A DNA stretch of 64,000 nucleotides from Moniliella sp. 'wahieum' (GCA_003971905.1 RSEE01000052.1:62001-126000); one strand, 5' to 3'. Positions 1,436 through 64,000 are shown, numbered from the stretch's first letter. The notes: generated by a model from the letters alone, not told the origin. Made by a program: numbers and translations.

Positions 1436-2637
1436 GGCTGCAGTTCATGTGGTGGTAAAAGTCGTGACAGAAACCGTATCGCATGGCCATATTACTGTGG
1501 AGTTAAAAGTGGCATGCGGGGCATATTTATCTTTCTTCCTCCTTTTCCGTCTGTCCGTCCTCCTCGCGCCCCTCCCCCCCGTTCTCTCAACCCACTGGTT
1601 TTTTTGTTGAACAAATGCATAGGGCATGTAGGTGGACGAGGGCTATCTTGTTCCTGTATACCATAGCAGAAAGAGCCGATACAAGCCTGAAGCTTGATTG
1701 AAGCTATCCTGGCACATGCATCAACTCTTACGATCCCTCTGATCCTTGTTTTGTCTTCCCTCCGACCGTCGCCATACACTGCACAGCTCCACCGATGCTC
1801 GTCCATTTTCTCTTCGAGATAGGTTTGCTCTCATCCCTTTTATTGGGTCCGAAACTGTGTGAGGAGAGGACGATTCTGAATCGAGGGATTGGGGGTCCCC
1901 ATCGTTGTTTCGTATCCTTGAGCTACCATCTGCATGGGACCGACGACTGCAACGGCCTTATTGGTGGAGAACCTAGCATACGGACGGGGCAGAAAGCGGA
2001 TCTGAAATGAACGTTGAACGTTGAACGCTGATCGATGATCGATGATGCGAGTTTTGAAATGTATAGCTGCTACTCCTGCGGGCAGGCACAGGCAGGCAAC
2101 ACCGTCTGCACTAGTAAGTGTTGGAGAAACGACACAAAAGGTTTTGTCGGCAGCCTGGGGAGGCTGTGCCGCGTGTTCTGGGTTGCAAAGGAGAGGCATT
2201 TCACCCGCAAGACTGGGTTCATAACATCATGTCGTACAAGAACAGTGGTATGGACCTCCGAGACGGCGCTACAGAGGGGCTAGATCTGAGAAAGGAGGCG
2301 ACACCCGCCCCTTAGAAGATGCAACCGCTGGAGCAGCCGTCAGCCTCGAGGGGCCCATACACGCAATATGGGGGCTCGGGCACAACTCGAATATTGTGAA
2401 CACCCCAAGCAGAGAACATGTATTGTTGTCCACCATCCGCAATTCCTAGCTCCCTGCTTCTTTTGCCCTCTTCCTCGTCATGGACGCATCAGGTCTCGCC
2501 ACCCCCAAATCACAGTCGACGGCGCCGTCCAAACGCCGCGAAGGAGCCCCTATCCCCCCGCTAGCGCTAGTGTACGCTTTGCGCGATCATTTACCACCCT
2601 CGTGCCGCTCCGGATCCATCTAAGGAGCAACAATTCA

Positions 2638-5600
2638 ATGCTCTCCCAACCTTTTCCATCCAGAATGGCCTTGCTTCCTCGTAAGAATCAAGTGCCACTG
2701 TTGCGTCGTCCCTCGGATACGGCTTTTTTTGCCCAAAGTCCTCGGGGCACGGAGTATTCCCCAATCACAAGCGACCCATTGTTTCCTTGGTTGGGACCTT
2801 CTACACCAGCAAGTGCACAGTACGTTCTTCACTTTCAGCCCATGGGTGCGTTTTCGACTTTCACGAACACAGGAAAAACATCCAGAGGGACTGGCTGAGC
2901 TTAGAGAAGAAGCTCTATCCTTTGGTATTTCTCTCGGTCCCAACCCAACAGGACTCACGTCGACCTTTGAAGATTCCGACGAGGATGAAGAGGAGGTGCC
3001 TACGTTGACCAGTGAGAAGGATAGTCTCCGGAAGATCAAGAATGGCTTTCGGTCTCTCGGAAGGTCTGCCAAGCCTCCTTTTCCTCCAGTAACGCCCCAC
3101 ATTGCAAAAGACGACACATACTTTGGGGTGCAGGGACTCGGAGGGCACCATGGAATCGACGGCTTCGCTCCCAAGTAGGGCGAGAATCATTCCTCCTTCT
3201 ACACCAGGGCGTGGGTCTGACTTGGTCTGCCTTGTCCCTTTACGAGAAGGGAGATAACGCCGCCTCCACCTTTCCAAGAGTGGGGCATCAACGCAGCCTC
3301 CTCGGGCTTCCCTATGTTTTTCTCCATTCCGCACTGGAGGAAAGAGATCCTTGGTAGAACCCCGTCGAAGCCCAAGGCAAATGGGACTTGGTGGGTTAAG
3401 TGCCCACGACGGTACCCCACCACTCGTGCCGGGGTCATAAGCCCCGACTTGCCCCCAGTCCTACGCTAGCCACGCAACGCGCTCAAAAGAGGGTGGAGTC
3501 CAGGCCGAAGACTTATTCGACCGAATGGCTTCTACTAAACTCTCCTCTAAGGCTCGGGGAAATCGCGAAGCTTCGGTCCCCCTGCTTCATGAGGGTGCCA
3601 GACCAGAAGGAATCTTCAATCCAGGATACGTCATTGAAGGTATCTCTTCCTGACCGACCTAGTACGGTGATGGACATCGCTAGCCCTGGAGTGAAGTATT
3701 TCATCTCACCTGTCACGTCGGTTTCTCAGCCCGTTCAGCTTCGACGCAGATAGGACAGCTCAATGTCCTCCATCCACCGTGGTCGACAGAATCGAACGCC
3801 CGCCGGGACGTCTCCCAAACAAGAGCAAGTCAGTTGCTTGCTTCTCTTTGGCAGAGATCGAGTCACAAGCCAAGCAAGGGGGGCAACAATCGACACACAA
3901 TCCGGGAAGCTCATACCACTCTTCCATCACCAGGTACATGCCCCATGCCAGCCCCACTGGAGCTGGACGAACCACCCACTTCATCGGAATGGGCTCAAGA
4001 ATCTCCTACGGTCCTTTGTATGGACTCGGCAGTTTTGCCGAGTGCGCCCCCCCAGCCTGGTGAGGAGGGGGGACTTGTGCCTGAGGTGGAAGAAGAGAAC
4101 CTGATCACGTCCGAGTCGGAGGAAGACCTACAACCTGAACCGCTTCCTGAATCAAGCTTGAAGAACCATCAAATTTGATCCGTGGTATGACGGGACGTCG
4201 AGCAAAAAACCAACAAATCCCGGTTAGTGTATCTTCATTATCGAGTCTGTGCTCCCCACTTGGCACAAATGGAAGCCAGGACAAGGATCAGCGTCATCTT
4301 TCTCTCTCTTTGTTGGTACCCCTCTCTTCCTTCCCCGCACCACAAAATTCGAGGAAAGAAAGGCCAGCGATCAAGGCAAGTTAGGGATTCATTCATCATC
4401 TCTCTATGTTGATGAGCCTGTTAACACTCATTACTGGCTTTACACCCTTCTATTTCGAGGGATTCGCTTGGGGATGAGAAAGAGGAGAAAGCACCGCCCT
4501 GGATTTGGGAGATGGTCGCATACGGAAAGGAAGGTTCTCAGAAGGTGAGGCTTTCAATCGAAAGCAGTACGTTCTTCCCTTCGCTTGACACGCTATGTGG
4601 TCCCCCTACGCTCCCAAACAGGGCCAGTTCAGTGCATTCCTCCGTACCCTTATGAAGCAGCGGAATGAAACACCGAAACTGCTCCTTCTACCCGGCCGGT
4701 ATCGCCTACAAGCGGTGAAAATGAGAAACTATGGCCTCTTGCTTCGTCACCCAAAGAGTCCCATACCAAAGGCACGCATTTTTCTGGTACCATGGGAAAC
4801 ACGTCTGTTGGCATGGGGAGCACTTCTGTTGGATTGACGATCAACACAGCTGCCGCCACGGAATGGGCCCTGTCGCCTGCACCCAAATCGTCTTCCCACT
4901 CCAATTGGCGCAGCAGCACAGGAACGTCACCTTATCCCACCTGCATTAGTCCCAATAATTTCGGGATCCACGATCGTGCACGACGTGCCAGCAGCAGTTT
5001 TGCCGAGGGGGTCAGTTCGGCAAACATCAGCCACTCTGTCTGAATCTCTTTGGGAGAAGACCTGTTTGGCCTGAATTCGTTCGAGCTTGCACCCCTGAGC
5101 GTCTCTTCGGCTACGAGTGGTGGATTCTTAGCAGTTCCCTCTCCCTTCCCTCCCGCTACATCTTTACAGCAACGGTGCGAGGGACCTTCTCCAAAGAAGG
5201 TAGTTATCTCGACATGCTGGATGAAGACGAGGACGAACCCGCCCTGTCTTCTCAATTTGTCCCGCACTCTCAGATCCGAATTGTCATGCTGAAGAGGAGG
5301 CGGCCGTCGAAGATGACTGCTGTCTCCACATTCGACTTCATCGCCCCGCCCACCTATACCCCGCCCTTCTTTCTTTGCTTGCAACCGACACGATTCTCGA
5401 TCCGGAACCTCTTCATGATGTGGATTATAAGGCAGTGCAGATGGAGGCGGCATTGCTTGGCTACAAACCGAGCGACTTGGGTGTCGAGTGTTTTGACTTT
5501 TGCGGTATCAATGGATCCGATTCTTCCCAGTATGAAGAGTCTTCTTCGGTTTTTATCTCAGCACATTGGGGGTGCTTTGTGTTTTCTCCTTTCAGTGGGG

Positions 5601-5698
5601 ATGATGCACTGATTGTGTGTTACCAAAATACTACACCTCACAAGAAGAGGGGATATTGGTGTAGCCGCAGGCATTATTCCTGTAGAAGTATATACTAA
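2638..5698 (+). CDS. Large hypothetical, largely disordered protein broken by frameshifts (or a pseudogene)
   Basis: Chain of overlapping plus-strand ORFs with protein-like S/P/acidic composition (e.g. FEDSDEDEEEVP, VEEENLITSESEEDL). No family recognised; boundaries uncertain. Confidence 0.3.
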
Positions 5699-7409: not shown

Positions 7410-7764
7410 CGCATGCCATGGTTTAAGATCAAGGGAAGGATGCCGACTAGGCAGGCTGCAGAGTGGGGCAGGAAATGAAAGCGTGCAAATGGAATCGGGA
7501 GAGAGGGCTCATAGGTCGTGCATGAGCCGTTCGTCAGCAGAGAACGCTGCTTTCTTCTACTAGTTAAGGCGCGCCATGCACCTTTCCACCATCCATCTCA
7601 TCTCAAGCATGGGTATTATCTTAAGACGTCAGGCAGCGCGACATGCTCGGGGGCAAATATGCCCTACAGACCAGGAGGCCGTGATTCATTTTTCCAGTGT
7701 CAGCGGATGAGCCTTAGCGCATCAGCCTCAGCCGCTCCGCCATTCGTTGGGGTGGTGACCCATC

Positions 7765-8899
7765 TCAGAGCGCTTGATGATCTCGTCCGTAAATGCACGA
7801 GTGCCCAGCGAGCCTCCCAGGTCCCCTGTGCGTTGGCCTTGAGCAATTGCCTTGAAGACCAGCCGCCTCGATCTTGTCGGCCTTGTCAAACAGGCTCATG
7901 TGGCGCAGCATCATGATCGACGACAGCAGCAGTGCGGTGGGGTTGGCCTTGTCCATCCCCGCATGTCCGGGGCTGAACCATGCACGGCCTCGAAGATGCT
8001 GGCGTCATAGCCAATTTACCCGACGGGGTCAGGCCCAGGCCACCGATCAGACCGGCGCACATGTCGGACAAGATGTCCCATACAAGTTGGGCATCACCAT
8101 CACCCGGTCCGAGTAGGGTGCCGGGTCCTGCACGATCCGTAAGCAGGCGCGGTCCAGCAGATCCTCGTCGTACGCAATGTCTGGGTACTCCTTGGCGACG
8201 GCGCGGCAGGCGTGCAGGAACATGCCGTCCGACATGCGCATAATGTTGGCCTTGTGCACCGCCGTCACGCGCTTGCCGCCCGCTCTGCTGCGCGTGGTGG
8301 AACGCGTACCGAGCAACCCGCTCAGGACGCCTCGAGAGTGATCAGCTGATCGACTGGACCACCCATCGACAATCTCGTGCTCAATGCCCGAGTACTCGCC
8401 CTCGGTGTTCTCGCGGATGAGGACAGTGTTGACATTGTCATAGGCCGTCTTGAAGCCCTCGATCGACGACAAGGACGCACGTTGGCGTACAGCTTGAACG
8501 TCCGCGCAGCGTCAGGTTGAAGCGTGGCCCTTGCCCACTGGGTGGCAAGGGACCCTTGAGGGCAACCGTGTTCTGACGAATGCTCTTGACCGCATCAGCA
8601 GGGATGGGGACTTGCCCTGCTCGTTGATGTAAGGGGTAACCTCAACCTCCTCCCACTTGATGGGCACGCCGGCAGCGTGGTAATGTTCTTGACGGCGTCA
8701 GCGACCTCGGGGCCAATGCCGTCACCAGGGATGAGGGTGACGAGGTACTTGCCGTCGGCCTCGGGCTTCTTGCGTACGCGGTGGTGATGCCGCCGCGGGG
8801 GTCTGGAGGCCGCGGCTGCGGGCAGGGATGGCGGCGCGCCACGGGACGGAGGGAGCGGCACGCACGCCAGCGCGAAGGGTGGGGAGGCAAGCTGGACAC
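7765..8899 (-). CDS. IDH2: NAD-dependent isocitrate dehydrogenase subunit 2 (catalytic), mitochondrial
   Basis: Motifs [63 protein letters not shown] and [11 protein letters not shown] across frameshifts. The start codon reads as GTG, possibly an error. Confidence 0.9.
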
Positions 8900-9465
8900 G
8901 AGATGGAGTGGTGGAGCGGCGCGGGAACCGACGGGAGGAAAAAGATGGCAGCAATCCTTGGCTTAGTCTGCTGCGCTCGATCGAACCGCGTGCGGCAGCA
9001 GCAGCAGTGCGGACGCAGCACTGGCGCCGTGCTGGGCGCGGGAGCCACACTCGCCATGCGCCTGTGTCGTCACATTTCATTTCATCACTTCTATTGCTTC
9101 CTTCGCGTTGTCCTTGCGTTCCATGGGCCCCGTGTCATTCGGCCTGACGCGTGACGAGCCACCACACGCTGACGAGCATCTCCACCGGGTGGGCCCATTG
9201 CCCATCGCGCCTAGCGTCCATTCCACGCCGGTTGGTGGGGCGCATAGCTGATGGCCCGCGGCCGCCCTACCCGGCGTGTCCGTAGCTGACGTAGCAGCGA
9301 AGGAGAAGCAAAAGATGCCAGAATGTCCAAAACAAAAGGAAACCAAAAGAAACTCGAAATCTCAAGAAAACTCACTCACCAGAACGAAAACAGCGTCGAG
9401 CCAGCAGACTTCGCGTCGCCCTAACCCTCTCTGATCCCGTCTCCTTCCACCACCACTCATTTCCC
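8900..9465. promoter_or_regulatory. Bidirectional promoter shared by IDH2 and IDH1
   Basis: About 570 bp between divergent start codons; contains several TGACG half-sites (about 9145-9175 and 9287). Confidence 0.6.
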
Positions 9466-10691
9466 ATGGCCCTCCCTCGCAGCCTTGGTCTTGCCCACAC
9501 GCTCCGTGCCGCGGCTGTGCCGCGTCTCGCCACGGCGTATGTCTACCCCTGAGCATGGAAGGCGCCCCTCCCCTGCCCAAGAAGTACGGCGGTGTATCCG
9601 TCGTCACCCTCTGCCCTGGTGATGGCATTGGGAAGGAGGTAACCCATTCGGTCAAGCAGGTCTTCGAGTCGATCAGCGTTCCCGTCGAGTGGGAGGAGTT
9701 TGATGTCTCCGGCGAGACGCGCGGCAGCGAGGCCCTGTTCCAGACGCAATGCAGTCTCTCCAGCGCAACAAGGTCGGCCTGAAGGGTACGTTTCCCCCCC
9801 CCTCTCCCTTTCTCCTTGTATCCCCCCTCCCCCCTGCTTCCCCCGCTCTCTGCCAGATCGGAAACGATCTGACATGACTCGTACCCAGGTATCTTCTACA
9901 CCCCCATCGAGGCTGGCAGTCACAACTCGTGGAACGTGGCCATGCGTCAACAGCTCGACATTTACGCCTCGATGGTCCTTTGCAAGACTCTTCCGGCCAC
10001 GCTACGCGTCACCCCAACGTGGACTTTGTCATCATTCGTGAAAACACGAGGGCGAATACTCGGGTCTGGAGCACCAGTCCTACCCTGGAGTGGTCGAGTC
10101 GCTCAAGGTATCGACCGGGCCAAGGCCGAGCGGATTGCGCGGTTGCGTTTGACTTTGCTGTGCGCAACGGGCGCAAAAAGGTGACGTGTTGCACAAGGCC
10201 AACATTATGAAGCTGGGTGACGGTCTCTTCCTCCGCACGTTTAACGAGGTGGCGAAGGAGTACACTCACGCCAGGATCGAGCACAACGCGATGATTGTCG
10301 ACAACACCTCCATGCAGCTGGTCAGCAACCCGCAGCAGTTCGACGTGGTGGTTACCCCCAACTTGTATGGCAACATTGTATCCAACATTGGTGCTGCGCT
10401 GGTGGGTGGGCCGGGTGTGATCCCCGGCGCGAACATTGGTCGGGAGTATGCGCTGTACGAGCCTGGCTGCCGCCATGTGGCCAAGGACATTGAGGGGACG
10501 GGCAAGGCGAACCCGACGGCGATGCTGCTTTCGTCGACGATGATGCTGCGGCACCTGGGGCTCAACGAGCACGCCAACGCGATTGCCAACTCGCTGTACA
10601 ACGTCATCGCGGAGAAGCGGATTGGCACGCCGGACATTGGCGCACGGCGACGACGCAGGAGTTCACCGACGCGGTGATCAAGAACTTGTGA
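9466..10691 (+). CDS. IDH1: NAD-dependent isocitrate dehydrogenase subunit 1 (regulatory), mitochondrial
   Basis: PKKYGGVSVVTLCPGDGIGKE, SHNSWNVAMRQQLDIYAS, HKANIMKLGDGLFL, MIVDNTSMQLV, YEPGCRHVAKDI. Intron about 9786-9888. Confidence 0.92.
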
Positions 10692-11092
10692 GTATGCGGG
10701 AGAACATATAAGCCAAAGATGTGGTTGCCCCTGGCTGGGCGAGCGGAAGGGGGCTGGGTTGGGATTAGATGTGGATAGCCGGAGTGTGGGCGGCGCAGCC
10801 GTGCTGAGCTGAGGCGCTGCGGCGGCCAGGAACAGCGAGAGCGAGGGCAGGTGGCTGGATTGAAACATTGGCGCTGATCGATGATCGATGCAGGGAGCCA
10901 AGCAGCTCTTACTCGCGCCCACACTGGCGCCGTGGCAGGCCGCCGCAGACCGGGCCGGCGAGCCTGCGCTTGGCAGCCACAACTGCCACCCAACACCCAC
11001 CTGCGCTTGCCACCCCCCCCCCCCCCACCACCCTCAAAGCCCTCCGCCACCTGCCCCCGGGCGCCCCCACCGCCCCCCCCCTCCCCCTCCCA

Positions 11093-13405
11093 ATGCGTCC
11101 TTTCGGCGCGCCCCGCCGCCGGCTCGCTCCGCCGACGACGACGACGTGGTGCCGCTGCTGCCTCTCGGCACCCCTGCCCTCCCCCTGCGCCGGCTCCCGA
11201 CCCGCGCTTCACGCTCGACGACGACGACGTCTTTGGGCCGGACTCAAGCCCACACAACAACAGCCATGCCATTCACGACTACGATGTCGAGGCACATGCC
11301 GACGCCATGCCCTTGCTCGGCCACCCCATGCTTCCGCCTGTCGCCACCCCCTCGGGGTCGCAGCACGCCTATCCACCTCTTCGCCACGAGCAAGGAGGCG
11401 AAGAGCCATCGAAGCTGTTCCCGCCCCTACCTCCTTCATACTACGACGCGATGCGTCCTGTCGAAAAGAAGGGCTTTGCCGCGTCCTTTGCCGAGTTCCG
11501 CCGCGAGTTTCGAGAACATATGAGCGGCATGCCCCAGTACGTGCCCGACTGGATCCGAGACGCCGGCGCCGCCGTCAAGCTCAAGGCTTACCGCCTCTAC
11601 CACCTCCTTACCCCGCACTCGCGCATCGCCCATATGAGCTACCTCGTAGCTGGCCTTTGGCTGCTTGTCGTCTTCACTGGCCCTGTGTTCGAGGCCACCT
11701 CGGACCCCCCATGTCGGACGACCCGTGGGACTGGGCAGGATCGCCCGTCAACCGTCGCCCGCCCACTCCCTTCATGGGAGACGGCTTGGTCCAGAAGAAC
11801 GCCAGCTGGGCTCATAAGGGATGCGTAACCGAAGCCGATGCTTCCTCTTGGGCTTGGTTTACCTGGTGCCACGCACTCACCGAGTTCTACCTTCCCCTCA
11901 CTGGCGATGGCGTCACGGGGCACGTCTACTTCCTCTCCGACCCACCACCGCCTTTGCCCCCCCTCCCGGGCTCGCATGCCCGGCGTGATGAGGAGGTCCG
12001 TGCGGATTCTCCGCCGCCCCTTCGTCGCCTCCATCTGCTTCGCCTCCAGCGGCCTCCGAACGCGACGACCGCGGCTCCGTGCATGGCACTCTGCGCATCG
12101 TCGAGTACGTTCCGGACCCTAGTTACCCAGAAGAGCACAAATCGGCAGCCCGGGTCAGTGTGAAGGCCAAGTACCTGATGGCCGCTGAAGAGTACTTTTA
12201 CGTCCACCGTCGTGCACCTGGCCCGGAATGGCGACCAAGGAATCGGGATCTACACCCGTCCCCCACCCTCTGTTAGGTCCAGCAAGACCGCCCGCGGACA
12301 AGGGCACCGCTCTCCCCTCATGTTCGATGTGACGGTGCGTGTGCCCAAGGCTTCCGCCATGCGCGGATCAACGTCACCACCTCCAGCATGGATGTTATCC
12401 TGTTTGATACGCTCACCAGTGTTTCTCCTCTTGGCGACGGTCCGACCTCACACCGGCCGTGCGTGCCAACGAACCCGATACTCCGACTGACCCGTATGTC
12501 GACAAGCTCACGATCAGCACAGGTGCTGGCTTTGTTGGCATCGGGAGCAAGTTGGGGCGGCCTTTAGTGGTGTCGGACCGGGTCGATCTATCCTCCGACC
12601 AAACACGGTCGCCCTCGCCGGCGTGGTCGAAGCAAAGAATGGGTTCACACTTTCTGCCAACCAGGGAGATATCCGTTTCCTCCCTGGTGCCCAAGCTTCC
12701 TCTTCAACCCAGGGGAAACTCCTGACCCAAACCGAGATTATCCTCATGCCCGAAGCCAAGGTTGTCGCACCTACCATTGTGGCCGAGGCTCGAGCGTTCC
12801 AAGTCCACCATCATGGCAAGGAACCGGGTAGTTGGAACCCATCCAAGTCCCTCTCGCTCCAGGCGAAGAGCAACCTCGAGGCGCACATTCGTATTCCCTC
12901 TTCTTCGGGCGTGGACATCTCTGCCTCGACGCACGCTGGCAATATGGATTTCCTACTGGAGGACGTGGCGTTTGGCACGCCCGTTCGCCAACGTTTCCTG
13001 CGACAAGGCATGCGGGGTCTCCCTTGGTCCGACCTATGTCGGTTCGGTGTTCCTCCGCGGTCCTTCCGGAGGCGGCGAGGGCAGCGCACCTACGTATTTC
13101 GATCCTCTTCCCAGCGCAACCAAATCCAAGGCAAAGGCAAACCCGTTCTTGAACTTCCTCGCCCAGCTACCGAGAGGAAGATCGACCCGGCCCCCGTTGC
13201 CGGCCCGTCCCCACCATGGGCCCCCACGCCCGCTTTGAGTGGCGCAGTGGATCGTCTCCTGTGGCGCCCAGCCGGGACGGGGAGGACGCTGGCCAGCTCC
13301 AAGCTCAGACCAATGGGTCGTCGATTTTCGTCGCGGGACGGTCGGAGGCACGTGCGGTCCTGCTCTGATTGCCTTTTTGCGCCCCAGGCTAAGGCTTCAA
13401 CTTGA
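11093..13405 (+). CDS. Hypothetical single-pass membrane protein with Pro-rich N-terminus and beta-rich C-terminal region
   Basis: Frameshift-linked ORFs; one hydrophobic segment (MSYLVAGLWLLVVFTGPVF) at about 11633-11690. End uncertain. Confidence 0.5.
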
Positions 13406-14509
13406 AGCTTGAGGCGCGGACGTTGTTTCGTTCGTTTTATCGTGGCGGAATAGGAGTGTGCCTCCCACTCGACTCGGATCGGGTGCATCGACATTTCCTA
13501 TCCGTCCAACATTGTATTCTCATCTGCTTTCTCTTCCTTCTTGTGGATCGCTGTGCATGTAGGACGGTGACGTGTGCGATCGGGGGGCTCAGGCGCTCAG
13601 GGATGGTATGATATATGACGACGGCAATAGTTTGTAACCGAGAATTTGCGGAGCCTGAGCTTGTATGTTCTCTCAATGTGATGATGGCTACTGAAGGGGT
13701 CGAGGGAGAGGTATGTATAATGACATGGATGCCATGGCGTATAGCATGTTGATGAACCACGTGTCCCTTCACGTCGTCGGGTGCTGGCACGCATTTTGTT
13801 GTCTGTACTGATTGCCTTTTCAGATCTCACCGCCACACCCCTTTCGTATGTTTTTCCTTTGACTCGAACTTCGCTTGATGACTATTTGGATTCTGATCTG
13901 AAAGGCTGGATTCCTACCGTATTCCTACTAGGTACTCTAGCGTAGACACATTGGGTATCTCGACCGCCAAGTCGGTCTGCGTCGCTCCCGTTCGCTGTGA
14001 GAACCAAAGTGAACAAATGAGCAAAAGTGTGGCTCCATCTCCCCTTTGAGTAAGATCGTTGAGGTCGTTGCGGGACAGCGACAACAAAGCAGATAGCGCC
14101 GGCTGCTACACCTAACCAGTAACACTACTATGCACCTGGATAGGGATATAGCAATCAAGATCACAACGAGCTGGCCAACTGTGGACACGAGCAAGCTGGA
14201 GCCCCCAGCAAGAGGGGCGGGTAACTGGGTACGCACAGTAGTGTAGTGTATACAACTCGCAACTCACATACGCCTAGGCCAGACAAAGACTGTTGACAAA
14301 GCAGGAGCACAGTAGTGGGATGCCCGCGATAAGGGAGAGGGGGATGGGGAGGGGGGGGGGCATCTGTGCTCCTCTTCAGGAGCAAGGTTCGGATCCAAAG
14401 CACCGGGTAGACCGGGTAACATCAAGAGTAATACGGAGTGGTGTGGTGAGCCTTCACCTGTTGTGGGAGGCGAAGAGAAACAGGGGAAGGGGAAGGCCGC
14501 GGATGCAGG

Positions 14510-26176: not shown

Positions 26177-26492
26177 TGATGGCTTGCAGATGCCCACAGC
26201 CGTGTTGCCTTTTGCATCCATGTACATTACTACTACCATGCTACCTACTTTGCCTACGTTTGCCTTGCCCCGCATATGTACTAGCGCCCCCTCTGGGATC
26301 TGAATTCGGATAGTACTTGGTTTTCCTTCAGGAGGCAGCACTCAAGTACCTCACCAGGATTCTTCACTGGTGGAGTCTGATCGTGACCGACTGTGTGCGA
26401 GCACGGACCACGTGCTGCTAGGGATTAATGGTTTAATCGGGGTAATTAGCTCATGGCCATCTTAATCGATGATCGATAATCGATGACGAGGA

Positions 26493-26928
26493 GACCACCG
26501 GGCCGTAGGCCCGGTCTGCTGGGGCTTCGTCCCAGCTTGGTGCTGCGTCGCCACTGTCGCCACCGTTCCGCCGGTCCACACGCGTACCTCGGGTATGGGA
26601 ACGGATGGCGGACACAAGAGGGTCCTGACCGGCGATTCCCCTGGTTCCTTAAGCGGGGCTGGCGCTACCAAGCAGCACACATGCAAGATCTGATCTCGCT
26701 CCCATTTCCAATTTCTTCGTCTCGAGCGTCTCGCTCCTTCCCTGTTTTCTTCCATTTCGCACCATGTCCTCTGTTCTTGCTTCTTCCCCACGAACTATTG
26801 CTACACCCCTTGGCCTAGTCCGATTCTGGTCCCTCGCCTTAGCCCCGACTGTGACAGAACGGGTCGGTTTATTAATAGGCGTAGCGTTTTAATTCTTTGT
26901 CCCAGCCTTAGCTCTGTCAATTGTTAAA
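26493..26928 (+). mobile_element. Non-autonomous, internally deleted derivative of the CRE-like retrotransposon (SINE-like)
   Basis: The first ~85 bp resemble the element 5' end starting at 29865; about 26575-26675 and 26855-26921 resemble 33125-33298. Flanked by a 7-bp TSD, ACGAGGA (26486-26492 and 26929-26935). Confidence 0.85.
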
Positions 26929-29860: not shown

Positions 29861-29864
29861 AGAA

Positions 29865-49600: not shown

Positions 49601-50541
49601 GCTTGCTCCACCTCCCTTTCCTGTCTCCTGTCTCCTTCCCTTCAGATCCTTCAACGGTTGCTTGAAGACTTGTAGCCTAGCGCTTTTTGCCTTCATGCCT
49701 TTTTGTCTGTCGAGCATCAACAGGCCAAGCAGAACCGGATAGCATGCCGAGGACTACTGGAACCATTTCTCAGGCCCTCACATGCTCACAGCGCTCAGCA
49801 GGCCCCTCAGACCGTGTCCTGTCACATGTCAGTCCTCAAGGCCTCAGGGCCTCAGGCTTAGATAGGTAGGATGTAAGGCAGGATTCTGGTCGCTCTTAGA
49901 GAGCTTGAAGCTTGAGGTGCACCTTGGCAATTATCGTTTACAGTGGATCCACCGAGACCTGTCGAACCAGGCGAGTGTCCGATAGCTTTTCATACGCGGC
50001 GTTGTCTGTGATGGACGCAGGGTGTGGGTTGCACAGCAAGGAGGCGCTGGTGCTGTCGACGAACATTCGAGTAGTTCGGTGTAACGTGGCGAGCAAGGCG
50101 AGCGAGTCGCCCCAAGTGCTATTCCTTATCTATGCACAACGTCCTCAGCATATCATAGACACCATGCATCATGCATCATGTGCATCATGCAACATCCAAG
50201 AAGCCCACAAACTGGCTTGCCTCCTTATTGTGGACGCTCCAACGCCTTCCTCGGCCTCACCGGTCAGCGGGGGGAGGGTCAAGCTTCAAGCTTCAAGGGC
50301 TGGTCAAGGCCTATAACACAGTAGGGAGTGCCCCTGTGTATTGCAAATCGTTGGAGGCATGTGCGATTGAGACATATGACGATGAATCCGTTAGCGGTGG
50401 CGTCATGCATTGGCCAACTGAGTGGGTTCTTGCACAGATAGTAGTCTCCTATATGTGGCAGATTGTATAAAAGGGAGTCCTCTCTCAATATGTCTATTCT
50501 CCACCGTTCCCCCCCCATCTTGATCCTATAGCATGGTCATC

Positions 50542-50877
50542 ATGTCCGAAGTACGTGCACTCTCTGACACCGTCCGTTCTAATGTGTTGTGAGCAATCTG
50601 CGGTCATTGCAGATATGCTCGAGAGCATTGTACAAAAGTGCTAACCATTCCCTTGTTCTATATAGCAGCAGCAGCAGCCTCAGGGCAACCAGCAGAGCCA
50701 GCAGGGCCAACAGGGTCAACAGGGTGGATTCACCACAACTACGTTGACAAGGCCGTCGAGTACGGCGAGCAGCAGGCCCTTGGTCACGACCTGAGCCAGA
50801 AACAGACCCAGGAGATCAGCAACGGCATCGAGACGGGCATCAAGTCCCTCACGGGCCAGAGCCTGCCTGGTCTCTAA
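50542..50877 (+). CDS. Small Gln/Gly-rich hydrophilic protein (stress/hydrophilin-like)
   Basis: TATAAAA at about 50466, MSE exon, intron 50551-50665 (CTAAC branch point), then QQQQPQGNQQSQQGQQG..NYVDKAVEYGE.. with one frameshift. Confidence 0.65.
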
Positions 50878-51096
50878 TATATTGTTAGCATGGTGATTTG
50901 GAATGTCTTCTCTTGCGCGTGGCTTGTCCACACTGTATCGCAATCATGCTCAAGCTATACACATCTTTGCCTGCCTAGTATAATAAAAGCACTGTGGAGA
51001 AGGGCCTTTTTGATATAGTAGCTTGGGTTAATCCACCTGTGTGTATTCGCTGGCATATGTGTGTGATACTTGCTCTTGTGGCGTACGGCCTTAACA

Positions 51097-51812
51097 CCTC
51101 TTGTCACGGGCGGGCGCCGCCAGGGGCCCGCCCTGGGGTTTTGGGAGTACAATCCCTTAGGCGACGGTAGGTCGACTCACGGTAGTTTCGGGCTTAGGCT
51201 GGTTGGTGTGTCCGAGCGGAGCTAGGGACGAGGAGAGGCCTTTGGTGGGCGGCTGCACGTGTGGCAAGGCTGCGTCTGCACCGGCTTGGGCCGTAGTAAC
51301 GTGTCTGAAGCCTCCGGGACTTAGGGACGGGAGGAGGCAGAGGGGGACAAACACTGCCTCCACTGTGATTGGGAATCGACGCGACCAAAGGAGGGCTCGC
51401 GCGACTGGACTGACGAATGGCTGGAGGACGAGGTCGGAAGAGAAGTCGGACGCTAACAAGAGCAAGCTGCCTGTACTGGATCAATTGGCTGGAAAACGGG
51501 CAGGGGTCGGACAGGATAGGCGGGAGGGTAGCCGAGGGGGTTGAGACGAGAGGATGACGAGAATGGAAGGTGGGGGAAAAGATCCCCATCAACCAGGGGT
51601 ACAGGCAGGATCAAAAGGGAAACGGATACAAGAGGGGGTGTAGAAAGGAAGACACGTCAAAAGCGGGGGTGGTCGCCGCAGGCGCGACCGAGAAAGGAAA
51701 AGGAAACGGGACGGGGCGACAGACGTCGCCACGGCACTGGAAGCTCGGTGGCCTTATTTAGGCCAGCCGACTTGGACTTGGGCGGGGGGCGACTATTGTC
51801 GCACGGAGCATG
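51097..51812 (+). repeat. Second inverted repeat, left arm (about 0.7 kb, diverged)
   Basis: Collinear with the reverse complement of 54395-55156 (e.g. CGACTCACGGTA, GTAACGTGTCTGAAGCCT, GGACAAACACTG). Confidence 0.85.
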
Positions 51813-54394
51813 ACCCTTCGGGCCACGGTACTTAATTTAGCCAACTCATCACACTTGGTTGGCCTGCGGTGCACGCTCTACTGGACATGTGCGGAGCAGG
51901 CGGGCCTTAGCTTGGGTCGGACCATCTCGTGTCCGCCGCAGCCCGTGACACCTCTGGACCATCGAAAGTAAGGGACACATTTCCACTGTGTTGGAGCAAG
52001 CGAAATGCGGCAAGGCCGCCAAGTGCCATTCAAGAGCTGTTATTCTCCCCTTTGTCATGACGATGCGCGGGTACTAAATGCCACCAACACGACCAATAAC
52101 AGGTTTTTTAAGTACTGCAAACTAAGCTTTACTCGGGATGAGTTTCATGGGAGAGGAACAAAGTTCCTTTTTGTCCCTGCTTTTGAGTTCTCTAAAGCTA
52201 TGACTAATTCAACATATTATGGAGATCTGTTCTATACAAAAGACAACGTAGTGGACATGAGATGAAGAGATGCTTCATTTTCACCCAACACTGTGAAGAA
52301 CACCACAACCAATCGGTGTAAGTGTTTACTATAGCTAATAGCTCTCCATGAAGTTGGAAGACAGAATGGCTTCTCATTGTTCTCTGTGTTTAGCAAAAGA
52401 GGGGAGTATGCACGTCCCACGGGCGCGGGCTGCGGCACATCGACTAGTTCTGGCCTACTAGGACAGCAGAACACCAACGGCGTCTATAAAGACATTGATG
52501 TTGTTCTTCCTGAGGGCTGAAAGTCAACCTTCTGGTCGGTTTTGGACTTTTGTTGACTGATCCGGTTCCTAGCGGAGCGTGGGAAGTGTTCTCCGTTTTC
52601 CGTCTGTATTCCTTGCTGCGGCCCATGAGCCTGGTCGCTTAATAGCCCCCCTTTCTTCCGTTGCATTGTCTCTTCTTTATCTCGATCCATTGTGAATGGC
52701 CCTTGAACCCTATATTTTGTTCTTTCACCCTTCCGATAGTGGATGGTTATCTTTCGTCTACAATCTTCGTCCACGCATTGTCGTATCAACAGTTTTTTGG
52801 TCCAAAACTACCCTTGACCCAAATGGTACAACTCCCTTAGCCCCTCCCACTGTACCGGTTCCAGACCAACAGCTTCCAGAGACCGACTTTCAGTGGTATT
52901 CCACAGTTTCCCCTCGGCCGGGCAGACAATGCTACCGCGCACTCCGGCATCCTCTCTGTCTATTTTCCGCATGGATTAACTCTGTGATCCCAAGAGAGTT
53001 GATTTTTGTTTTCCCGTGACCGGAGAACCTATCCTACCCTACCCTTTTACCTGCATCATCTTCCCATTCACGCAGTCCTTTAATCATAGAACAACAAAGA
53101 CTAAAGGCACGCTATGGTCTTACCTCTGATGTGCATGCATGTATTATACGGGATAAGCGCGCCGACGCCCCGACGAGGCGGTCTCACCTGGCTGCTTTTG
53201 TTGATCGGCGTGGTTGAGGGCCAATCACCTCTATGCCATGCGGACTTGATCCTTTTTCCCGAATTGACTGCAGTGACCCCGGACTCAAGGTTTTGGTCGT
53301 GTTCGATCGGGCTCCAGACTGGTTTATTAGTGCATGACTCCATGATTCCTCTTCTTCTTTTCCTTGCTGGATCTAGTTCCACTTCCTGTCTTTGAGCCGC
53401 CGTCGCATTCAGCTCTGCAATAGCAGACCAGGTGAGAACATCTGCTCAACCACGATCATGTGTCTGAGTGGTCCATTCTCTCCTCGAAGGGAAATCGCTC
53501 CCATAAATATATGGGCCGGGTACCAGTCCTAGTATGTCCGGCCATGACAAGGATGACCAATTCCATGGTCTATTCCTCGTCCCCATATATTTGCGAGATA
53601 TTCAGTCGAGTTGCCAATCGCCCTCTCGAGAGGCAAAAAGTTGGCCCTTCTTTCCGAATCCGTCGGTATTGTCGGTCTGACCACAGAGTGTGTGTTCAGA
53701 ATTACACTGCGAAACTATTCTGCTCAGCGCGAAGCAATACTTGGCCTGATTTGGATACACACACACTGTTGCCACTGCCACAATCGGGGGATGAGGCGAG
53801 AAAAGAGGAAGGAAAGAGTTTTGAAACCAGATATGGTAGAGGGAATGTAGTAATCGTTCTTGGAGAAGAACGAAGAGGAGGGGGCTTGGGGCAAAGCAAA
53901 AGAGAACAAGGAACTAAAGAGCGCAGAGACGCTCGATACAATTAATAGCATTACGCTTCCCACTTTTGTTTAAGCGTGAAGCTACATCAGCTGATCGAGA
54001 GTACCAAGTTAGCATAGTGGCCAGTGTGCCGGTGAGCCGACGGGTTTTCCGCACAGCCACACGTTAGGACATGAGTGAGGCCTATAATATAAGGCTTTGG
54101 CCATTCACCTTAGGTCTAAAAGGCTTAGACCTCTAAGATCTCATTCAAGTACCCACAGGCACCTACTACACACAGATCCAGTCACGAGTGAAGATGGGCT
54201 GGCGGTCCCGGCTGAGCTTGCACGCTCCTCTCGCATTCCTCACTCTGATCCAAGCCTGGTCAAAGAATGAGCAATGACAATGCCGTCTCCTCCTTGTTGG
54301 AGTGGACAATGAAGAACCCACCTAGCCCACAGAGTCCGTTCCTAGCCTCAACCACGCGGTGACCCACGCGACCATCCCCGCCGCCATCAGCCTT

Positions 54395-55156
54395 GCATGT
54401 CCACGGGGCAATATTCGTCTTCTGCGAAAGTGGAACTTGGTGGCCACATTCGTGCCACCGAATTGTCGGCATCTTTGCGACAATAGTTGTCCCGTGCCCG
54501 TTTACCTTACCTTTGGAGGTTGCCTGTGCGACAAAACCATTCCCCTTTTGTTCTCTTCCCTGTCCCCGTCCTTCCTCTATTGCGTTGGTTCCCTTCTGGT
54601 CCGTTTTGTCTGTGAATAATGGTCCATAGTTTCCCTCCACGGCCTATTGTCTTCTTCCCTTCCTGTCCTCATCAATTCACCTAGTCCAGGCAACCTCGTC
54701 TCCCCTTATAGCCGCCGCCTCTCTATCCGCCCTCTTCGTCTCTCAGCTCTTCAGCCAAGACCCAGTCAAGTCGCGTTGGTCCTCTTCTAGCCACGTCGAG
54801 GCAGGTCCCAAGCAAAAGTCCGCGCTCTGACAGTGTTTGTCCTCCGTGCCAATCCCCGTCCCTGAGCCCCGAAGGCTTCAGACACGTTACTATAATACTG
54901 CCCTAGTCGGTGCATACTTCCGCAGCCTTGTTGTCACGCCTGCAGCCACCCCTGCTATACGCTGAGCTACTCCTTTGCCCCTATATATATACAGCTCATC
55001 CGCTCGGGCGTACCAGCCTGCCCAAGCACGAAATTACCGTGAGTCGCCCCTTTAATTGGACTTCTAAGGGATCGTACCCCCTAAGGCCTAAGGCATAAGG
55101 CCTAATACAACCGGGTGCCAGGGCGGCCCCCCTGGCGCTTCCCGTCCCTGAAGAGG
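54395..55156 (-). repeat. Second inverted repeat, right arm
   Basis: See left arm; relic translations DQKG..AQATSKGKVNGHG vs DQKG..AGATEKGKGNGTG. Confidence 0.85.
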
Positions 55157-57252
55157 CCTGACAACTCTCCCTACGGCCTCTATGGCCTTGGCCCCGTCAC
55201 GTGTCACGTTTCACGCGTTCGGCCTCTCCGGCTCCGACCCTGAGCGCTGAGCACATGTATGTGCACCGCTAGTGTTGACAACTGTCAGCATGTCAGCCTC
55301 AGGTCCTCATCAAGGCTGCAGGGCCTGAGGCCTCAGGGCCACAGGGCGGTAGACACGTGATGGATGATGGATGATGCCTTTCCTGAGGTCTATGCCTGAC
55401 GCCAATCGATTTTCGATACGGATCGATGATCATCGATCACGGATCATTGATCGCTGAGTACACAGCGTCACGCGGCGGTGGATACTAAAAACGTATCCCT
55501 TGGTCTTCCGAAGTCACTAATGAGTACACTGAGTACTGAGTACTTGTTGGAGTGTGGTGGCACCCCTTGGTGTGATGGCTGGATCGGCCATGGCTGGCAA
55601 GCGGAACTGGCTATAGAGTTCCGCGACTCGCGCGCTCCGGATTGGTGACCGTCGCGCCCTCGTTCCCCTCCTTCATCTTCTCCTGTTGCATTGAAGGTTG
55701 GACTAGCGTCAGGAGCTTACAAGAAGCTATCTCTGACTGTTCCCACCCTGCATAGTGCAATCGTCCTTAGCTTGGTAGCGTAGCTACTTCTCTGTTAACG
55801 GACAACCGCGGTTCTGGGCTCTCATTGGTGTGATCGATTCATCGCGCTCACCCATTGATCGCCTAGTCTAGTGCTTCGCCCTAGCCCCCAATCTTTCAGT
55901 ACTGAGTTCAGTAGTCAGTTGCCACTTTTATCATAAAGCACTAAGTACTAAGCACTAAGCGCTAAGCCTTAACATGTAACAGGACCTAGAGACAAGACGC
56001 ACAGCCCCGTCGGATTCGCACAGCGCCGAACTCGCCCCGTATCCACATAGTATTATTGTTTTTTTGGATGGGACCTTTATTTGTTTTTTGTATCGGACCT
56101 CGAGTCCGCCGCGGGCGGGGAATTTGACGATCTTCAAGGGTCCCAATTAAATGAGGCCCAGGACAGGGCCCAACGCGACGCCCAAGTGGCCCACGGCTGC
56201 ACTGGACTTGTACTTACCCCAGTCTGGGGCCCTGGCATACTGCGGCCGGCGGACAATGGGATAATTTGTACTTAGTCACCCAAGGTACTGAGCTCTGAAA
56301 AATCGGTATTGCCGTCATCTAATATTTACGTGTGGTGGCAAGAGGGCTGAACCTCAGAGGGCGCGCTGAGGCGCTGAGAGCTCAGCTTGAGCTCTCAGCC
56401 TCAGCGCTCAGCCTGAGCCAGCTACAATAAACCAGTCCATTATTAGTCAAACATCATCGCCCCCCGCGCGAGCTCACGCTCAACCATATGGTTGAAGGGG
56501 AACGTCTATACCGCCCTTGTCAAGCACAAGCAACAGATAAATGTGATGGATGCAGCATTTTCTTCGTCCCTGCAGTGCGTGTTGCAAGGCTCAGCGCTCA
56601 CGACGCTATGAATGCAACAATAGTAGTCAATATGTAGTGGTGGGTGCTGGTCGTGCGCTTCACCAGCTTTTCACCCAACAGGCTTGAAGCTTGAGGGTCC
56701 TTGGAGAGTGAGGGGCCCGAGGCCCTGAGGCCAGCGTAAGCTCAATAAAGGGAAATGCAAACGGGGGGTGGGGGGATACCACATGGCATTCCCCTAGCTC
56801 GTGAGTTGGATCGTGTAGGGACCATTCTCTTAGTACCTAGGCGCGTGCTCGACAAGCACATCTGGAGCAGGATCAGATCGGGATCAGAAAGGCCGGGGCC
56901 GGGTCAGCTAGGCACGCGAACTGCGGCTAGCTCAGTGCGGAGTAGAGTATGTTGGCCCCAGATCCCAGACCGCCAAGTGAAGTGGAGGGGAGTTAAGTTT
57001 TAAGATGTCGATTGATACTAATCCCCCACAGTACAGCTCCGAGGAAAGTCTAAGGCGCGAAAGAAGGAAGGAGCGTGTCAATTGAGTGTGCGAGATATCC
57101 AAGTGTGAATGAGGGGAAAACGCGGGCCATAGTGTAGTAGCAAGTGAGGTAGAAGGGGGAGCAGGGAAATAGATAGGATCCAAAGCGACTAGACTGACAA
57201 CTGTGGGATGCCAAAGATCCAAACAGCCAAACGACGGATACAGTTTCCCATC

Positions 57253-58917: not shown

Positions 58918-60599
58918 AACGGTCCTGGAGCGTGGGATCGTAGGATGAGACCAGAGCGGGCACAGCGGTGGTAGCGGTAGCGGCGGCGGCGGCGGCGGGG
59001 CGGGCGGCGGTGCGGTGGGAGCTGCCGGCGCTGCTTGGCACACTGGAGGGCGGGTTGGGGAGCGGTGGCGCGGGGAGCATGGGAGGGGAGGGGAGGGGGG
59101 GGGAGGAGATGGAAGGAACTGGGAGGCGGGTGTGTGTTGGATTGAGTTAACGCGGGACGGGGTGTCGATGGGGCCGACTGGCAATGGCGATGGCAATGGC
59201 GATGGCGATGGCGATGGGGGCCCTCCCGTGCGGCCAGGGTTCGCGCTGGCGTGGGCACTGTGCCGCATCCATTCGACTCGCATCGGCCCTGGCGTGGCTC
59301 CCACGGGCCAGGGAGCACGGGGGCAGTTTAAACCCGCGCTGCTGCTGCTGCCCCCGCGCCACACCACACTGCGTCCGGTGTGCGCTCCCGTGCGCGGGTG
59401 CGGGACGAGTGGTGTGCTGCGCGCTGCTGCCGGCACGGGGCCTGCGCCCGCGCCGATGAGCACGAATACTCAGATCTCAGAACTCAGATCTCAGACGAAG
59501 TGCTTCGGGGGTAAGCGGCCGGCAAGCTTTCGGAACGGCGGTGCCTTGTCGTGCGAAGCGAGTGCCAGTGCTGGCAAGGGGCGCTTCGCCTTGAAAAGAC
59601 CCCCGACGGGCAGTCTGCCTGCGTCCGCTCCGGCTGTGTCGGCTGGTGGCTGCGGCGGGTTGAGCGTTACGCGTTACGAGCGTTGCATATTGAATGTACA
59701 TGGAACGTACGTTGAACGTGAAATTGTGACATGCACAGGTGACAAAAGGCACTTGCCCCAGAGGCTCAGGCTGAGCGCGGGTGCCCTGATCGATGATCGA
59801 TGATCGATGATCGATAACCGAAAAACCCTACGAGGCGTCCGCGCCAGTGTGGCTCGCGCTCAGCGCTGAGGCTCAGCGCCCAACCAGCGGCAGTCCATGG
59901 GATCATGAGATCGATTAAGGAACCTAGCTTCGAAAGTACTACAACGACGACAACTGAGTACACCGAGTATACGAGTCCACTGAGTACTTGGTGACTAGGT
60001 GACTACCGGTAGTGATGCATGATGGATGATCGATGGTCAATATTCAATCAGCGTCAGCCGTCAGCGCTGAGGCTTAGCCTGAGGGCCTGAGTAACACCAG
60101 TGTGGGCATCTTTCCTACACACACACACTTCAGCGATTAATTGATTATCGATGTAATTCTCTTACGCAAATTTGTGGTCCTCCGACGGTTGCATATATGG
60201 AAGCACAGATGATTCCGAGAATCAACATGTGTTGAAGATATCGGGCCATACCAGCCCCACCACCTCTCAGGATCAGACGGAATTAGTGCAACAGAGCCGC
60301 CATCAGACATGATGTCAAGGCGAAGTGGTGCCGGGGGAGCCGCGAATGGTCAAGCTTCAAAAAACTTGACGTCTGAAGGAAGGAACTGGGGATACAACCA
60401 AGAAGGGAGATGGGCTCACGGTGGGCAGGGGGGTGCGCAGCTTCCGAGTGAAACCTGCGGCTCGACTATAAAAGCGGGTGTCACCAATGAACTTAAGGGG
60501 CCGTGCTGGGGAATCCTATAGCGCTCCCCTCTCTCATCGTGCGATCCCATCAAAAGTATACTCTCTCACATATATACAGGCTCTGTCATCGGCTTCATC

Positions 60600-61896: not shown

Positions 61897-63092
61897 TGAA
61901 TCCATATCATTGACAGAGCTTAAGGCTGGTACAGGGGAACGCTACGTCTAAACCGAACCGTTCATCTTGGGGGGTTACTTGGAAGCGCCACTAAGGTCAA
62001 GGAACCAGGGGGATCGCCAGGATATCAGGACCCTCCGGTTCTCGCCATCCGGTCCCGTACCCTAGGAAGCGCGTGTGGACACGGATGAACGTGGTTGACA
62101 TCCGAGCGAGGAACCATTTCCACTGAGACTTGGTAGCCAACTCCTTCCAATGCGCAAACAACTTGCCCGCTGTCTTGGTGCCGTAGTATCCTCGCGTCGT
62201 CAAAACCAGGGGGAAAAACGGCTCTTGAGTGCGTCCCTGGTACTTGGCGTTCTTGTCGCATTCTGCTTGTTCAAGCAGCCGAAGCAGTTCCTTCTCCGGC
62301 GTTCCCAAGGCGACGCAGTGCTCTCGTGCACCAACCGCCGGTACGCGCTCTGCGCCTCTTGCGTTCCCGTGTCGCGCAGCGTGTGGTCCACCTCCATCCC
62401 TGATCCTCCCAGTGCTCCAGGCCCCATCACGCGGTAGTCGGTGCGCTGTGCCCTCGGTCCGCGCCTCGTCCCATCCTCGTCCTCCATCATAGGTTCGTTG
62501 CGGACGTGAGTGTCGGGGATGGAGCGTATGAGCTGGAGAATGGGCTCCCGTACTGCCTCATGCAACGCACTAAACTTGGCCTGGGTGCGGGTGCAAGACA
62601 TGATGTGCTCCAGCGAGGACATGACACCGCACTTGCACATGCTGCGCGTGGTGCGGCACAGCGTGCGGAGCTGGAGACCCACCTGGACCTGCTGGTCAGA
62701 GAGCAGGTACGGGACGGACGGAATGGCGGAGAGCCAGTTGTGGCTCAGCGGGTTGCTGTGCTCAAACACATGGCGACCATCGGCAGCGTCCAGCTTCTGG
62801 AGCAGCTCCTGTCGACTTTGCTCCCACATCTCGCGGCAGCGCTGGCGTTGCTTCGTAAATGCGTTGGCCGTTGCCGTTTGCGGTCCCGAACGGTCAACAT
62901 AAGTGGTAATAAGATAGTCGTTGACCTCGTTGGCCGCAGCACGGGCGTGGGGCGCGATATACGAGTAAAGCGGGCTGCCACATCCTCCCATCCGGAGAGG
63001 CAGGCTCATGAGCATGTCGAAGTGGTCGTCCTTGGCACTTGGGGATCCTCGTCGCCCCGGATCCGTCTGAACTCCGTACAGAGATCAATCTC
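61897..63092 (-). mobile_element. 5'-truncated copy of the CRE-like retrotransposon
   Basis: Highly similar to 32108-33309 (LPLRMGGCG..CKCG..KNAKY..ILAIPLVP* plus 3' UTR). 5' truncation is typical of target-primed reverse transcription. Confidence 0.92.
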
Positions 63093-63224
63093 CTCAGTGC
63101 GTCACCGCGAAGGGAGACGCAATCGGTCTTAGTAGTGACGGGTGACGCGCAATCACATACAATACGCGTCCATGTTCAACGACGTTTTCTCAACATTTTC
63201 TCAATCTCCTGAAGAAACCTGGGA

Positions 63225-63990
63225 ACCTGCGTATTAGGCCTGGGTTCCTGAGTGCCTGAGTCTCAGGCCCGAGGGCGTCTTCTTCAGCCCTTTCAGCCTT
63301 ATAAGCTTCAGAGCGCTCAGCCTTGTCAAGCTTCAGGCTTATATTCATTAATCATTCTTCAAGCTCTTCAATAAGCTTCAAAAAGCTTCACTAGTCACTA
63401 GTCACTAGCCACTAGCCACTAGCTTCACTAGCGTCATCGATCAACGTAATAGCAGGTTACCGGTTATGCTTGACTAATATATGCACCACGCGGTGCAGTC
63501 TGTGCACATCCAGCACATCCTCCTTCTCTGGAGTCCTCATGCACTCATGTATATACTCAGTACTCAGTCGAGTGCTATTATAAGTACTAATAATAATCGA
63601 TCAATCAAAACGGTTCTCTATTCTCACTTAATTTTTGTTTTACCAATCTCTTCGTGTGCCTTAAAACGTTAAGTCATGATGCATGAAGAAAAGACCGCGC
63701 GCTACCCCTGCTTCCCCTCGTCAAGGAGAGTCCGGCTCTTCCGGTTACTTCGTCACCAAAATACTCTTGACAAGTCAGTGACTAGTGACTAATGAACGGT
63801 GACCAGAGGACGCTAGTAAAGCTTAGCTGGAAGCTCGAAGCTCGAAGAGCTTGAGGCCAGAGGCTCAGGCCTGAGGCTAGCTTGAACCTATAATAGCTTG
63901 AAGTTTGAAGTCGCTGGTACTATATTGTTCGCTTCAGCTGTCACTCATGTCACATGCCATGTCACGCGTCATCACACGTAACAAGTACTC
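63225..63990. repeat. Dense cluster of 7-bp-period palindromic arrays (AAGCTT, ACTAGT, AGGCCT, AGTACT, ACATGT cores)
   Basis: e.g. cttcactagtcactagtcactagccactagccactagcttcactag; tcagtgactagtgact; gctcaggcctgaggc; gtcacatgccatgtcacgcgtca. Confidence 0.8.
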
Positions 63991-64000
63991 AGAATTATTG

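Follow-up and report, generated by a model that had tools for sequence, protein, structure and literature searches.

Hairpins on the flanking DNA occur in excision of the Transib/RAG type, in the CMCT clade (PMC5499845). The P nucleotides of V(D)J coding joints belong with footprints of this type. Artemis, like Pso2, cuts a hairpin at a point 2 nt 3' of its tip, which leaves a 4-nt overhang; in yeast, Pso2 is required for the repair of Ac/Ds hairpins (PMC3299998). Ac/Ds, a transposon of the hAT type, retains its target duplication together with short palindromic insertions after end-joining repair; its footprints are described from plants, Saccharomyces cerevisiae and Candida albicans, and in the last of these it leaves short P arms and two dominant footprints (PMC5873905). 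Here we analysed a stretch of 64,000 nt from Moniliella sp. 'wahieum' (GCA_003971905.1, RSEE01000052.1:62001-126000), hereafter the window, with positions counted from its first base. Its non-coding DNA carries a family of short units of the form TNA-[4-bp palindrome]-TNA, 116 units in 99 arrays between 1099 and 63971, and we consider it likely that these units are scars which transposons left on excision from 7-bp targets centred on TNA, preserved here at high density.

The TNA-core-TNA grammar is real and far beyond chance. The 116 units compare with 7.6-7.7 in shuffled sequences, all 16 possible palindromic cores are represented, and the core is palindromic in 116 of the 271 TNA-N4-TNA pairs, for which chance is 1 in 16. 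The first-pass annotation of this DNA had proposed a core-independent A..T grammar with a period of 7 bp, enriched over control grammars and shuffled DNA, and counting within the window upholds both parts of the proposal. Identical A..T hexamer pairs at period 7 number 24, against 0.07 expected from 30 local dinucleotide shuffles; at the same period there is one C..G pair and there are no G..C or T..A pairs, and A..T pairs at periods 6, 8 and 9 number 0, 1 and 1, respectively. None of the 15 other X-N-Y flanks exceeds twice its expectation, the highest being GNT (26 vs 13.1). The control grammars (other hexamer flanks, periods 4-11 and the 15 other flanks) were rejected as comparable, since their enrichment is far lower. 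When core lengths of 0-10 were compared, length 4 was the only one clearly enriched; odd cores with the same spacer on both sides are barely enriched (17 vs 10.7 for 3 nt, 6 vs 3.0 for 5 nt), and near-palindromic cores with one mismatch are in excess (51 vs 15.7). The spacer base is the same on both sides in 87 units, complementary in 16 and otherwise in 13. Same-spacer TNA pairs around a palindromic core are expected only 2.5 times, and 71 of the 87 additionally repeat two flank bases. An apparent preference for A six bases from the site centre was rejected, as it is the A of the adjoining unit. Among the 25 positions that the annotation had given, 23 carry a full TNA-core-TNA unit and 12 have two complete hexamers with 7-bp spacing, but 49840 is an 8-bp variant and 43800 is a lone hexamer.

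The structure of one unit is best seen in its relation to the flanks. Among the 87 same-spacer units, the core matches two nucleotides of one flank only in 49 (0.43 expected), of both flanks in 22 and of neither in 16 (1.9 expected), and such one-sided templating was absent under every other X-N-Y flank tested. At the 198 ends of the 99 arrays, the match to the flank extends over 0 nt in 85, 1 nt in 30, 2 nt in 56, 3 nt in 11 and 4 nt in 16 cases, with a peak at exactly 2 nt; per array, the commonest non-zero classes are (2,0) and (0,2), with 14 arrays each. The single scar at 13403-13412, whose core agrees with the left flank over exactly two nucleotides and with the right flank over none, is an example, and two single ACGT scars at 35072-35110 show both orientations, that at 35072 being left-templated and that at 35101 right-templated. 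The event converts ab-TNA-cd into ab-TNA-cd d'c'-TNA-cd or, in mirror image, into ab-TNA-b'a'ab-TNA-cd, and the basic object is a stereotyped single insertion of 7 bp, made of a direct copy of 5 bp and two inverted bases. Because the core is an inverted copy of one flank, a fold-back (hairpin) step is needed to make it. A mixture fit to 44 isolated same-spacer units gave weights of 0.41 to a hairpin class, 0.25 to tandem duplication and 0.34 to a flank-independent class, and without the hairpin class the fit is worse by 16.6 log-likelihood units. Units of the flank-independent class resemble decayed scars: 15 of the 16 units that match neither flank still share one of the two bases with it (about 0.64 by chance). 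Transition-type decay is seen in the units as well, all 8 transition-spacer units retaining their flank match. The annotation had held a single transcription-factor motif, and likewise simple slippage, to be insufficient as an explanation, and the reverse templating of the core from one flank bears this out. Of its further suggestion, a fold-back or hairpin-transposase footprint, the hairpin step and the geometry stand, but the iterative synthesis of arrays gives way to a single 7-bp insertion, and the hAT type is disfavoured, as discussed below; a template switch by a repair polymerase, its other option, is the less likely one.

The window itself holds the product structure, its variants, their clustering and their avoidance of coding DNA; from these we infer a transposon, a 7-bp duplication, a flush hairpin and an opening enzyme. 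A cut-and-paste DNA element would insert at ab-TNA-cd and duplicate the NN-TNA-NN heptamer. On excision, nicks exactly at the element ends would be followed by sealing of both flanks as covalent hairpins, as RAG/Transib do; the hairpins would be flush because the palindromes are even and take in the flank base that borders the element, and their tips would lie after d in one flank and before a in the other. A cut placed precisely where the element stops yields palindromes of even length about the junction, and RAG nicks flush. A host beta-CASP nuclease of the Pso2/Artemis type would then open each hairpin 2 nt 3' of its tip. Each end would thereby acquire a self-complementary 3' overhang of 4 nt, the left one reading cd d'c' and the right one b'a'ab, and the duplex would end at TNA on both sides. 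That 4-nt cores alone are enriched fits the reported opening position two nucleotides 3' of the apex (PMC3299998). End joining that mostly retains one overhang whole and drops the other would give a net gain of 7 bp, and this step predicts the same spacer on both sides, an even four-base core, a one-sided two-base match and a seven-base gain. Retention of one or two extra bases would yield 8- and 9-bp variants as side products. Thereafter a second hit or slippage may extend the symmetric TNA in phase with the same core, or a hit on the other TNA may switch the core. Insertions in exons would shift the frame and be removed or avoided, and old scars would decay by point mutation. The process would thus work like excision of the RAG/Transib type followed by Artemis/Pso2 opening, a likeness in working rather than a demonstrated membership of any superfamily.

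The variants bear on the joining step. In 13 of 15 8-bp variants the extra base is the opposite flank base, although nine of these 13 may be one-base slips or assembly errors; the four that cannot be homopolymer slips all match the opposite flank base. Among the sites with such an added base are 49778-49788 (without homopolymer extension), 55285-55295 and 63537-63547, and at 41115-41132 a palindromic 4-mer plus one opposite-flank base merges into a GATC unit. Opposite-flank bases are also carried in 5 of 10 9-bp variants, e.g. at the asymmetric site 27180-27191, where a full 7-bp duplication has two inverted bases between the copies. Shuffles give 0.4 such sites in all for the 8-bp and 0.3 for the 9-bp class. 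The three 10-bp variants match neither prediction, and variants with three opposite-flank bases, i.e. beyond the 7-bp site, number 0 of 3, the numbers being small. The 8- and 9-bp variants fit end joining that retains parts of both overhangs; identical ones would arise from template switching if the point of return varied. Complementary-spacer units keep a two-nucleotide flank match in 11 of 16 cases, which suggests occasional longer inverted copies.

The same observations could be accommodated if no mobile element were involved. A nuclease of the host, or a domesticated one, might cut 2 nt beside TNA, giving either a break staggered by 7 nt or a nick; repair might then take a short U-turn, by template switch or through a hairpin, and rejoin at the T of TNA. 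Such a route accounts for the product of 5 direct and 2 inverted bp, for the 16 complementary-spacer units and for the 8- and 9-bp variants as varying return points, and it needs no transposon, of which none was found in the window. We nevertheless regard it as unlikely. A fixed U-turn with 2-nt arms and no loop would be expected of a covalent hairpin and not of a polymerase folding back, the duplication of the site requires two copies of the heptamer, as a target-site duplication (TSD) provides, and the variants with three opposite-flank bases that returns beyond the site would give were 0 of 3. We know of no host enzyme of this type.

Most units stand alone. The annotation had described many arrays, and period-7 arrays do exist, yet 88 of the 99 consist of one unit, with six of two units, four of three and one of four. 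The longest perfect array has four TCGA units (59787-59817), and three-unit arrays are formed by TCGA at 26463-26486, by AGCT at 40013-40036, with an 8-bp variant before it at 40005, and by ACGT at 46173-46196, upstream of RPS26. A five-unit period-7 chain at 2008-2045 has two ACGT cores, one imperfect core and two TCGA cores, and a five-unit TAA chain at 55942-55979 mixes perfect and imperfect cores. Switching of the core in mid-run, which the annotation had also reported, occurs but is uncommon: there is one exact switch against 17 same-core neighbours, and five switches at the hexamer level, one of them at the same site as the exact switch. The exact switch, from ACGT to CATG at 38255, lies in an ACGT chain with spacer flips (38221-38271), and both of its outer flanks match the cores as a two-hit model predicts. 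Because a scar creates a symmetric TNA site, further events would extend it in phase. Four simulations of re-insertion reproduced the share of multi-unit arrays but gave same-core to switch ratios of 2.5-5:1, against the observed 17:1, so that re-insertion alone probably does not explain array growth; slippage, or a bias towards symmetric sites, is therefore a probable contributor.

Slippage could also be taken as the origin of the whole family, if symmetric heptamers were duplicated as microsatellites, their hairpin loop-outs escaped mismatch repair and the products then decayed. The excess of exact tandem arrays of period 7 (47 vs 4.2 in shuffles), the tandem-duplication weight in the mixture fit and the 17 to 1 preference for same-core extension all speak for it. 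However, slippage requires a summed left and right flank match of at least 4 nt, whereas (2,0) and (0,2) are the commonest non-zero classes, and it gives no reason why TNA should be used over 15 other flanks or why the period should be 7 only. As an origin it is disfavoured and, in our judgement, quite improbable; it probably helps to extend arrays once they have been seeded.

Units are few in coding regions, as the annotation had noted. Coding spans were delimited manually from Pfam matches and long open reading frames (ORFs) and are hence approximate (25.3 kb in total); 4 units were found per 748 TNA sites inside them and 112 per 1912 outside (Fisher p 4e-12). Two of the four lie at the end of an ORF and one in an apparent intron of the Rab gene. 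The density is about one array per 410 bp of non-coding DNA, or about 100 arrays in 39 kb. The units are clustered, 29 gaps being of at most 60 bp where 13.6 are expected and 2000 draws gave no more than 25; the cluster of highest density, with 13 units at 63130-64000, includes the CTAG array at 63388-63404. Repeats (duplicates, retroelements and the interior of the element described below) hold 0-1 units per 39-138 TNA sites, against 8-20 units per 44-186 TNA sites in intergenic clusters. This distribution, in gene-proximal non-coding DNA and rarely in repeats, would be expected of arrays kept by selection as binding sites, their TGA/TCA half-sites being read at 7-bp intervals by a chromatin factor or a general regulatory factor, and the TSA autocorrelation does peak at 7 and 14 bp. 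A reader of TNA half-sites, however, cannot impose a palindromic core of any sequence, as is found in 116 of 271 pairs against 1 in 16, nor can it make the core copy one flank, and some clusters sit between apparently convergent genes (39.3-41.6 kb). We therefore hold selected binding to be very improbable as the source of the units; a binding factor could act on the retention of scars.

The quality of the assembly also has to be weighed. The genes for isocitrate dehydrogenase (IDH), MDH, thioredoxin reductase (Trr1) and Rab, in 7760-36620, are each broken over several reading frames, and because housekeeping genes are split in this way, the assembly carries small indel errors. A basecalling or long-read assembly artefact could be argued from these errors. 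Such errors strike coding DNA, however, which the units avoid, the units show transition-type decay with the flank match kept, and the core at 27611 is shared with a paralogous copy near 19585. An artefactual origin is hardly credible.

Compared with characterised superfamilies, the excision scars inferred here show a mixed set of features. The even palindromes point to flush hairpins, as in the CMCT clade (Transib/RAG, EnSpm/CACTA), but that clade is reported with TSDs of 2-5 bp (PMC12730594), and the scar geometry (2+3+2, from both mirror products) indicates a 7-bp target with a TNA centre. Coding joints share the flank hairpins and the 4-nt overhang; they differ in being heterogeneous, whereas the scars here are stereotyped and saturate non-coding DNA. 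The retained duplication and short palindromic insertions of Ac/Ds are a further likeness, but its palindromes are described as odd, centred on the complement of the base beside the element (PMC5873905), whereas those in the window are even. Because the 4-nt cores are even and odd cores of 3 and 5 nt are enriched less than 2-fold, a hAT element of the Ac/Ds type is disfavoured. TSDs are 8 bp in Ac/Ds-type hAT elements and 7 bp in hAT7 of rust fungi, a likeness to the inferred 7-bp site in length only (PMC12730594). Kyakuja elements (KDZ, Agaricomycotina) likewise have 7-bp TSDs in basidiomycetes, again comparable only in length with a site deduced from scars, and they differ in having CA..TG ends without terminal inverted repeats (TIRs) (PMC12730594). 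The foldback MULE Muta1 has long TIRs and forms on the flank a hairpin of 43+43 nt, a size that agrees with a flush nick (PMC5499845); the TIRs may be compared with the 0.7-kb arms of a decayed element in the window. MULEs, however, are reported to duplicate 8-10 bp of target and, in yeast, to excise precisely in more than 90% of cases (PMC5499845), against a 7-bp site and a +7 scar here, so the scars do not have the MULE pattern; precise events would be invisible in the window.

A literature search, with most subscription journals and all supplements outside it, found no paper on a TNA grammar or on genome-saturating footprints, none on flush nicking by EnSpm, and no account of intergenic heptamer repeats in Ustilago maydis, with which the annotation had compared the arrays. 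In a viral sequence collection, 14 loci carry the identical AACGTT-S heptamer array with at least three units, several per contig in some; they differ from the window in having a single core (other cores 0-2 per locus, about 1 expected) without the flank-templated grammar. Among 80 metagenome loci around relatives of the thioredoxin reductase, the grammar was enriched in none (highest TNA count 16 vs 12.6-14.4 expected); many of these loci are short and none is from a close relative of the host, although they include contigs whose reductase is 95% identical to the Malassezia caprae or the Rhodotorula glutinis protein. Within this small sample, the grammar looks lineage-restricted.

Several results weigh against transposon excision as the source of the units, in addition to the same-core excess and the ambiguous 8-bp variants given above. 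TIR elements of up to 6 kb with a 7-bp TSD were not found above background in the window; the best candidate had 10 of 16 terminal matches among 1062 NNTNANN pairs, and the top matches were the arrays themselves. Pfam detected no transposase among the 248 window ORFs of at least 100 aa, and no Kyakuja protein in the window, where the search for element ends covered those with TIRs. Plain 7-bp duplications that fall in the predicted register are few (4 vs 0.33) and give weak support, because other registers are about equally common. No 7-bp scar indel distinguishes the 94% identical 2.7-kb pair or the 95% identical 1.2-kb retroelement pair. The scar density demands very many fixed cycles of insertion and excision, and we know of no characterised superfamily that joins a 7-bp TSD, flush flank hairpins and imprecise repair.

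A transposon-like structure in the window also fails to provide the source. It is about 4 kb long (51097-55156), with arms of about 0.7 kb in inverted orientation (51097-51812 on the plus strand, 54396-55156 on the minus strand; alignment score 303, best of 30 shuffles 51) and an interior of lower GC, and as judged from its sequence it appears to be a decayed element. Neither Pfam on six read-through frames nor phmmer with one 403-residue frame against 1.84 billion representatives revealed a transposase or any match, respectively; an atlas search with one 114-aa ORF gave no match, and a look-up of the left arm no look-alike. The candidate TSDs are incompatible with the arm alignment. For a member of the CMCT clade, CA..TG termini and a CMCT transposase would be expected. 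Because neither termini nor a TSD could be assigned and its interior has no matches, the element cannot be named as the source of the scars. A three-unit TAA-GGCC array at 55082-55105 is carried by the right arm only, the left arm having a 25-bp gap at this place; this would fit insertion after the arms had formed, provided that the left arm keeps the older state. Likewise, the three-unit array at 26463 faces a 12-bp gap in a weakly similar paralogous stretch at about 20090-20144 (weak alignment, score 52.5), and a 7-bp indel, readable as one NN-TNA-NN heptamer, distinguishes the 5'-part copies of a retroelement near 29905 and 26530; each of these is a single case and weak.

The retroelement lies at 29858-33309 (plus strand), with a Pfam RVT_1 match at 31379-31930, and has copies at 61897-63082 (minus strand) and 26486-26689 (plus strand), one 95% identical and 5'-truncated, the other older and internally deleted. 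Its C-terminal part presumably resembles restriction-like-endonuclease non-LTR elements. An origin of the units by reverse transcriptase was set aside, as the copies contain 1 and 0 units and their ends are unlinked to the 16 cores. The inverted 2.7-kb duplication (17370-20082 and 27126-29827; 94% identity) has an ORF without Pfam match, and one of its copies adjoins the 5' end of the retroelement.

The window is fungal. The best matches of the thioredoxin reductase (16089-16763, minus strand) are basidiomycete proteins, an unnamed protein (86%) and one of Tilletia horrida (84%), followed by those of Tilletiaria, Cutaneotrichosporon and Naganishia (80-81% each); these matches support a basidiomycete-like host and no finer placement. 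Genes recognised by Pfam are IDH (two), Rab GTPase, MDH, RPS26, histidine phosphatase (two) and thioredoxin, together with a PQ-loop protein, HbrB and the reverse transcriptase. The two IDH-family genes form a divergent head-to-head pair at 7760-10760 with 66% DNA identity over 554 bp. An ORF at 41746-42894 (minus strand) contains, as read from the sequence, a CxxCxxxxxxCxxxxxCxxCxxxxxxxC stretch resembling a Zn2Cys6 finger and has no Pfam match, and a small gene with an intron at 50530-50880 appears to encode a short glutamine/glycine-rich product.

It is conceivable, although we put it forward tentatively, that an undescribed transposase lineage or a domesticated RAG-like nuclease of this fungal lineage combines the 7-bp NNTNANN target with flush flank hairpins and cycles so often in accessible intergenic DNA that its scars are a main source of new non-coding sequence, seeding self-extending heptamer repeats. 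This would be a route to tandem repeats that begins with excision repair and not with slippage. Laboratory assays normally yield excision footprints in small numbers; the window has about 100 near-identical candidates in 39 kb of non-coding DNA. If the reading of the units as excision scars is true, the transposase should have an unusual target, 7 bp long with TNA at its centre, and the genome would be a natural, countable record of hairpin opening and rejoining by a fungus, in which the cut position, the overhang kept and the by-products can be read. Transposon excision could then also create simple repeats and reshape gene-proximal DNA with the element itself gone.

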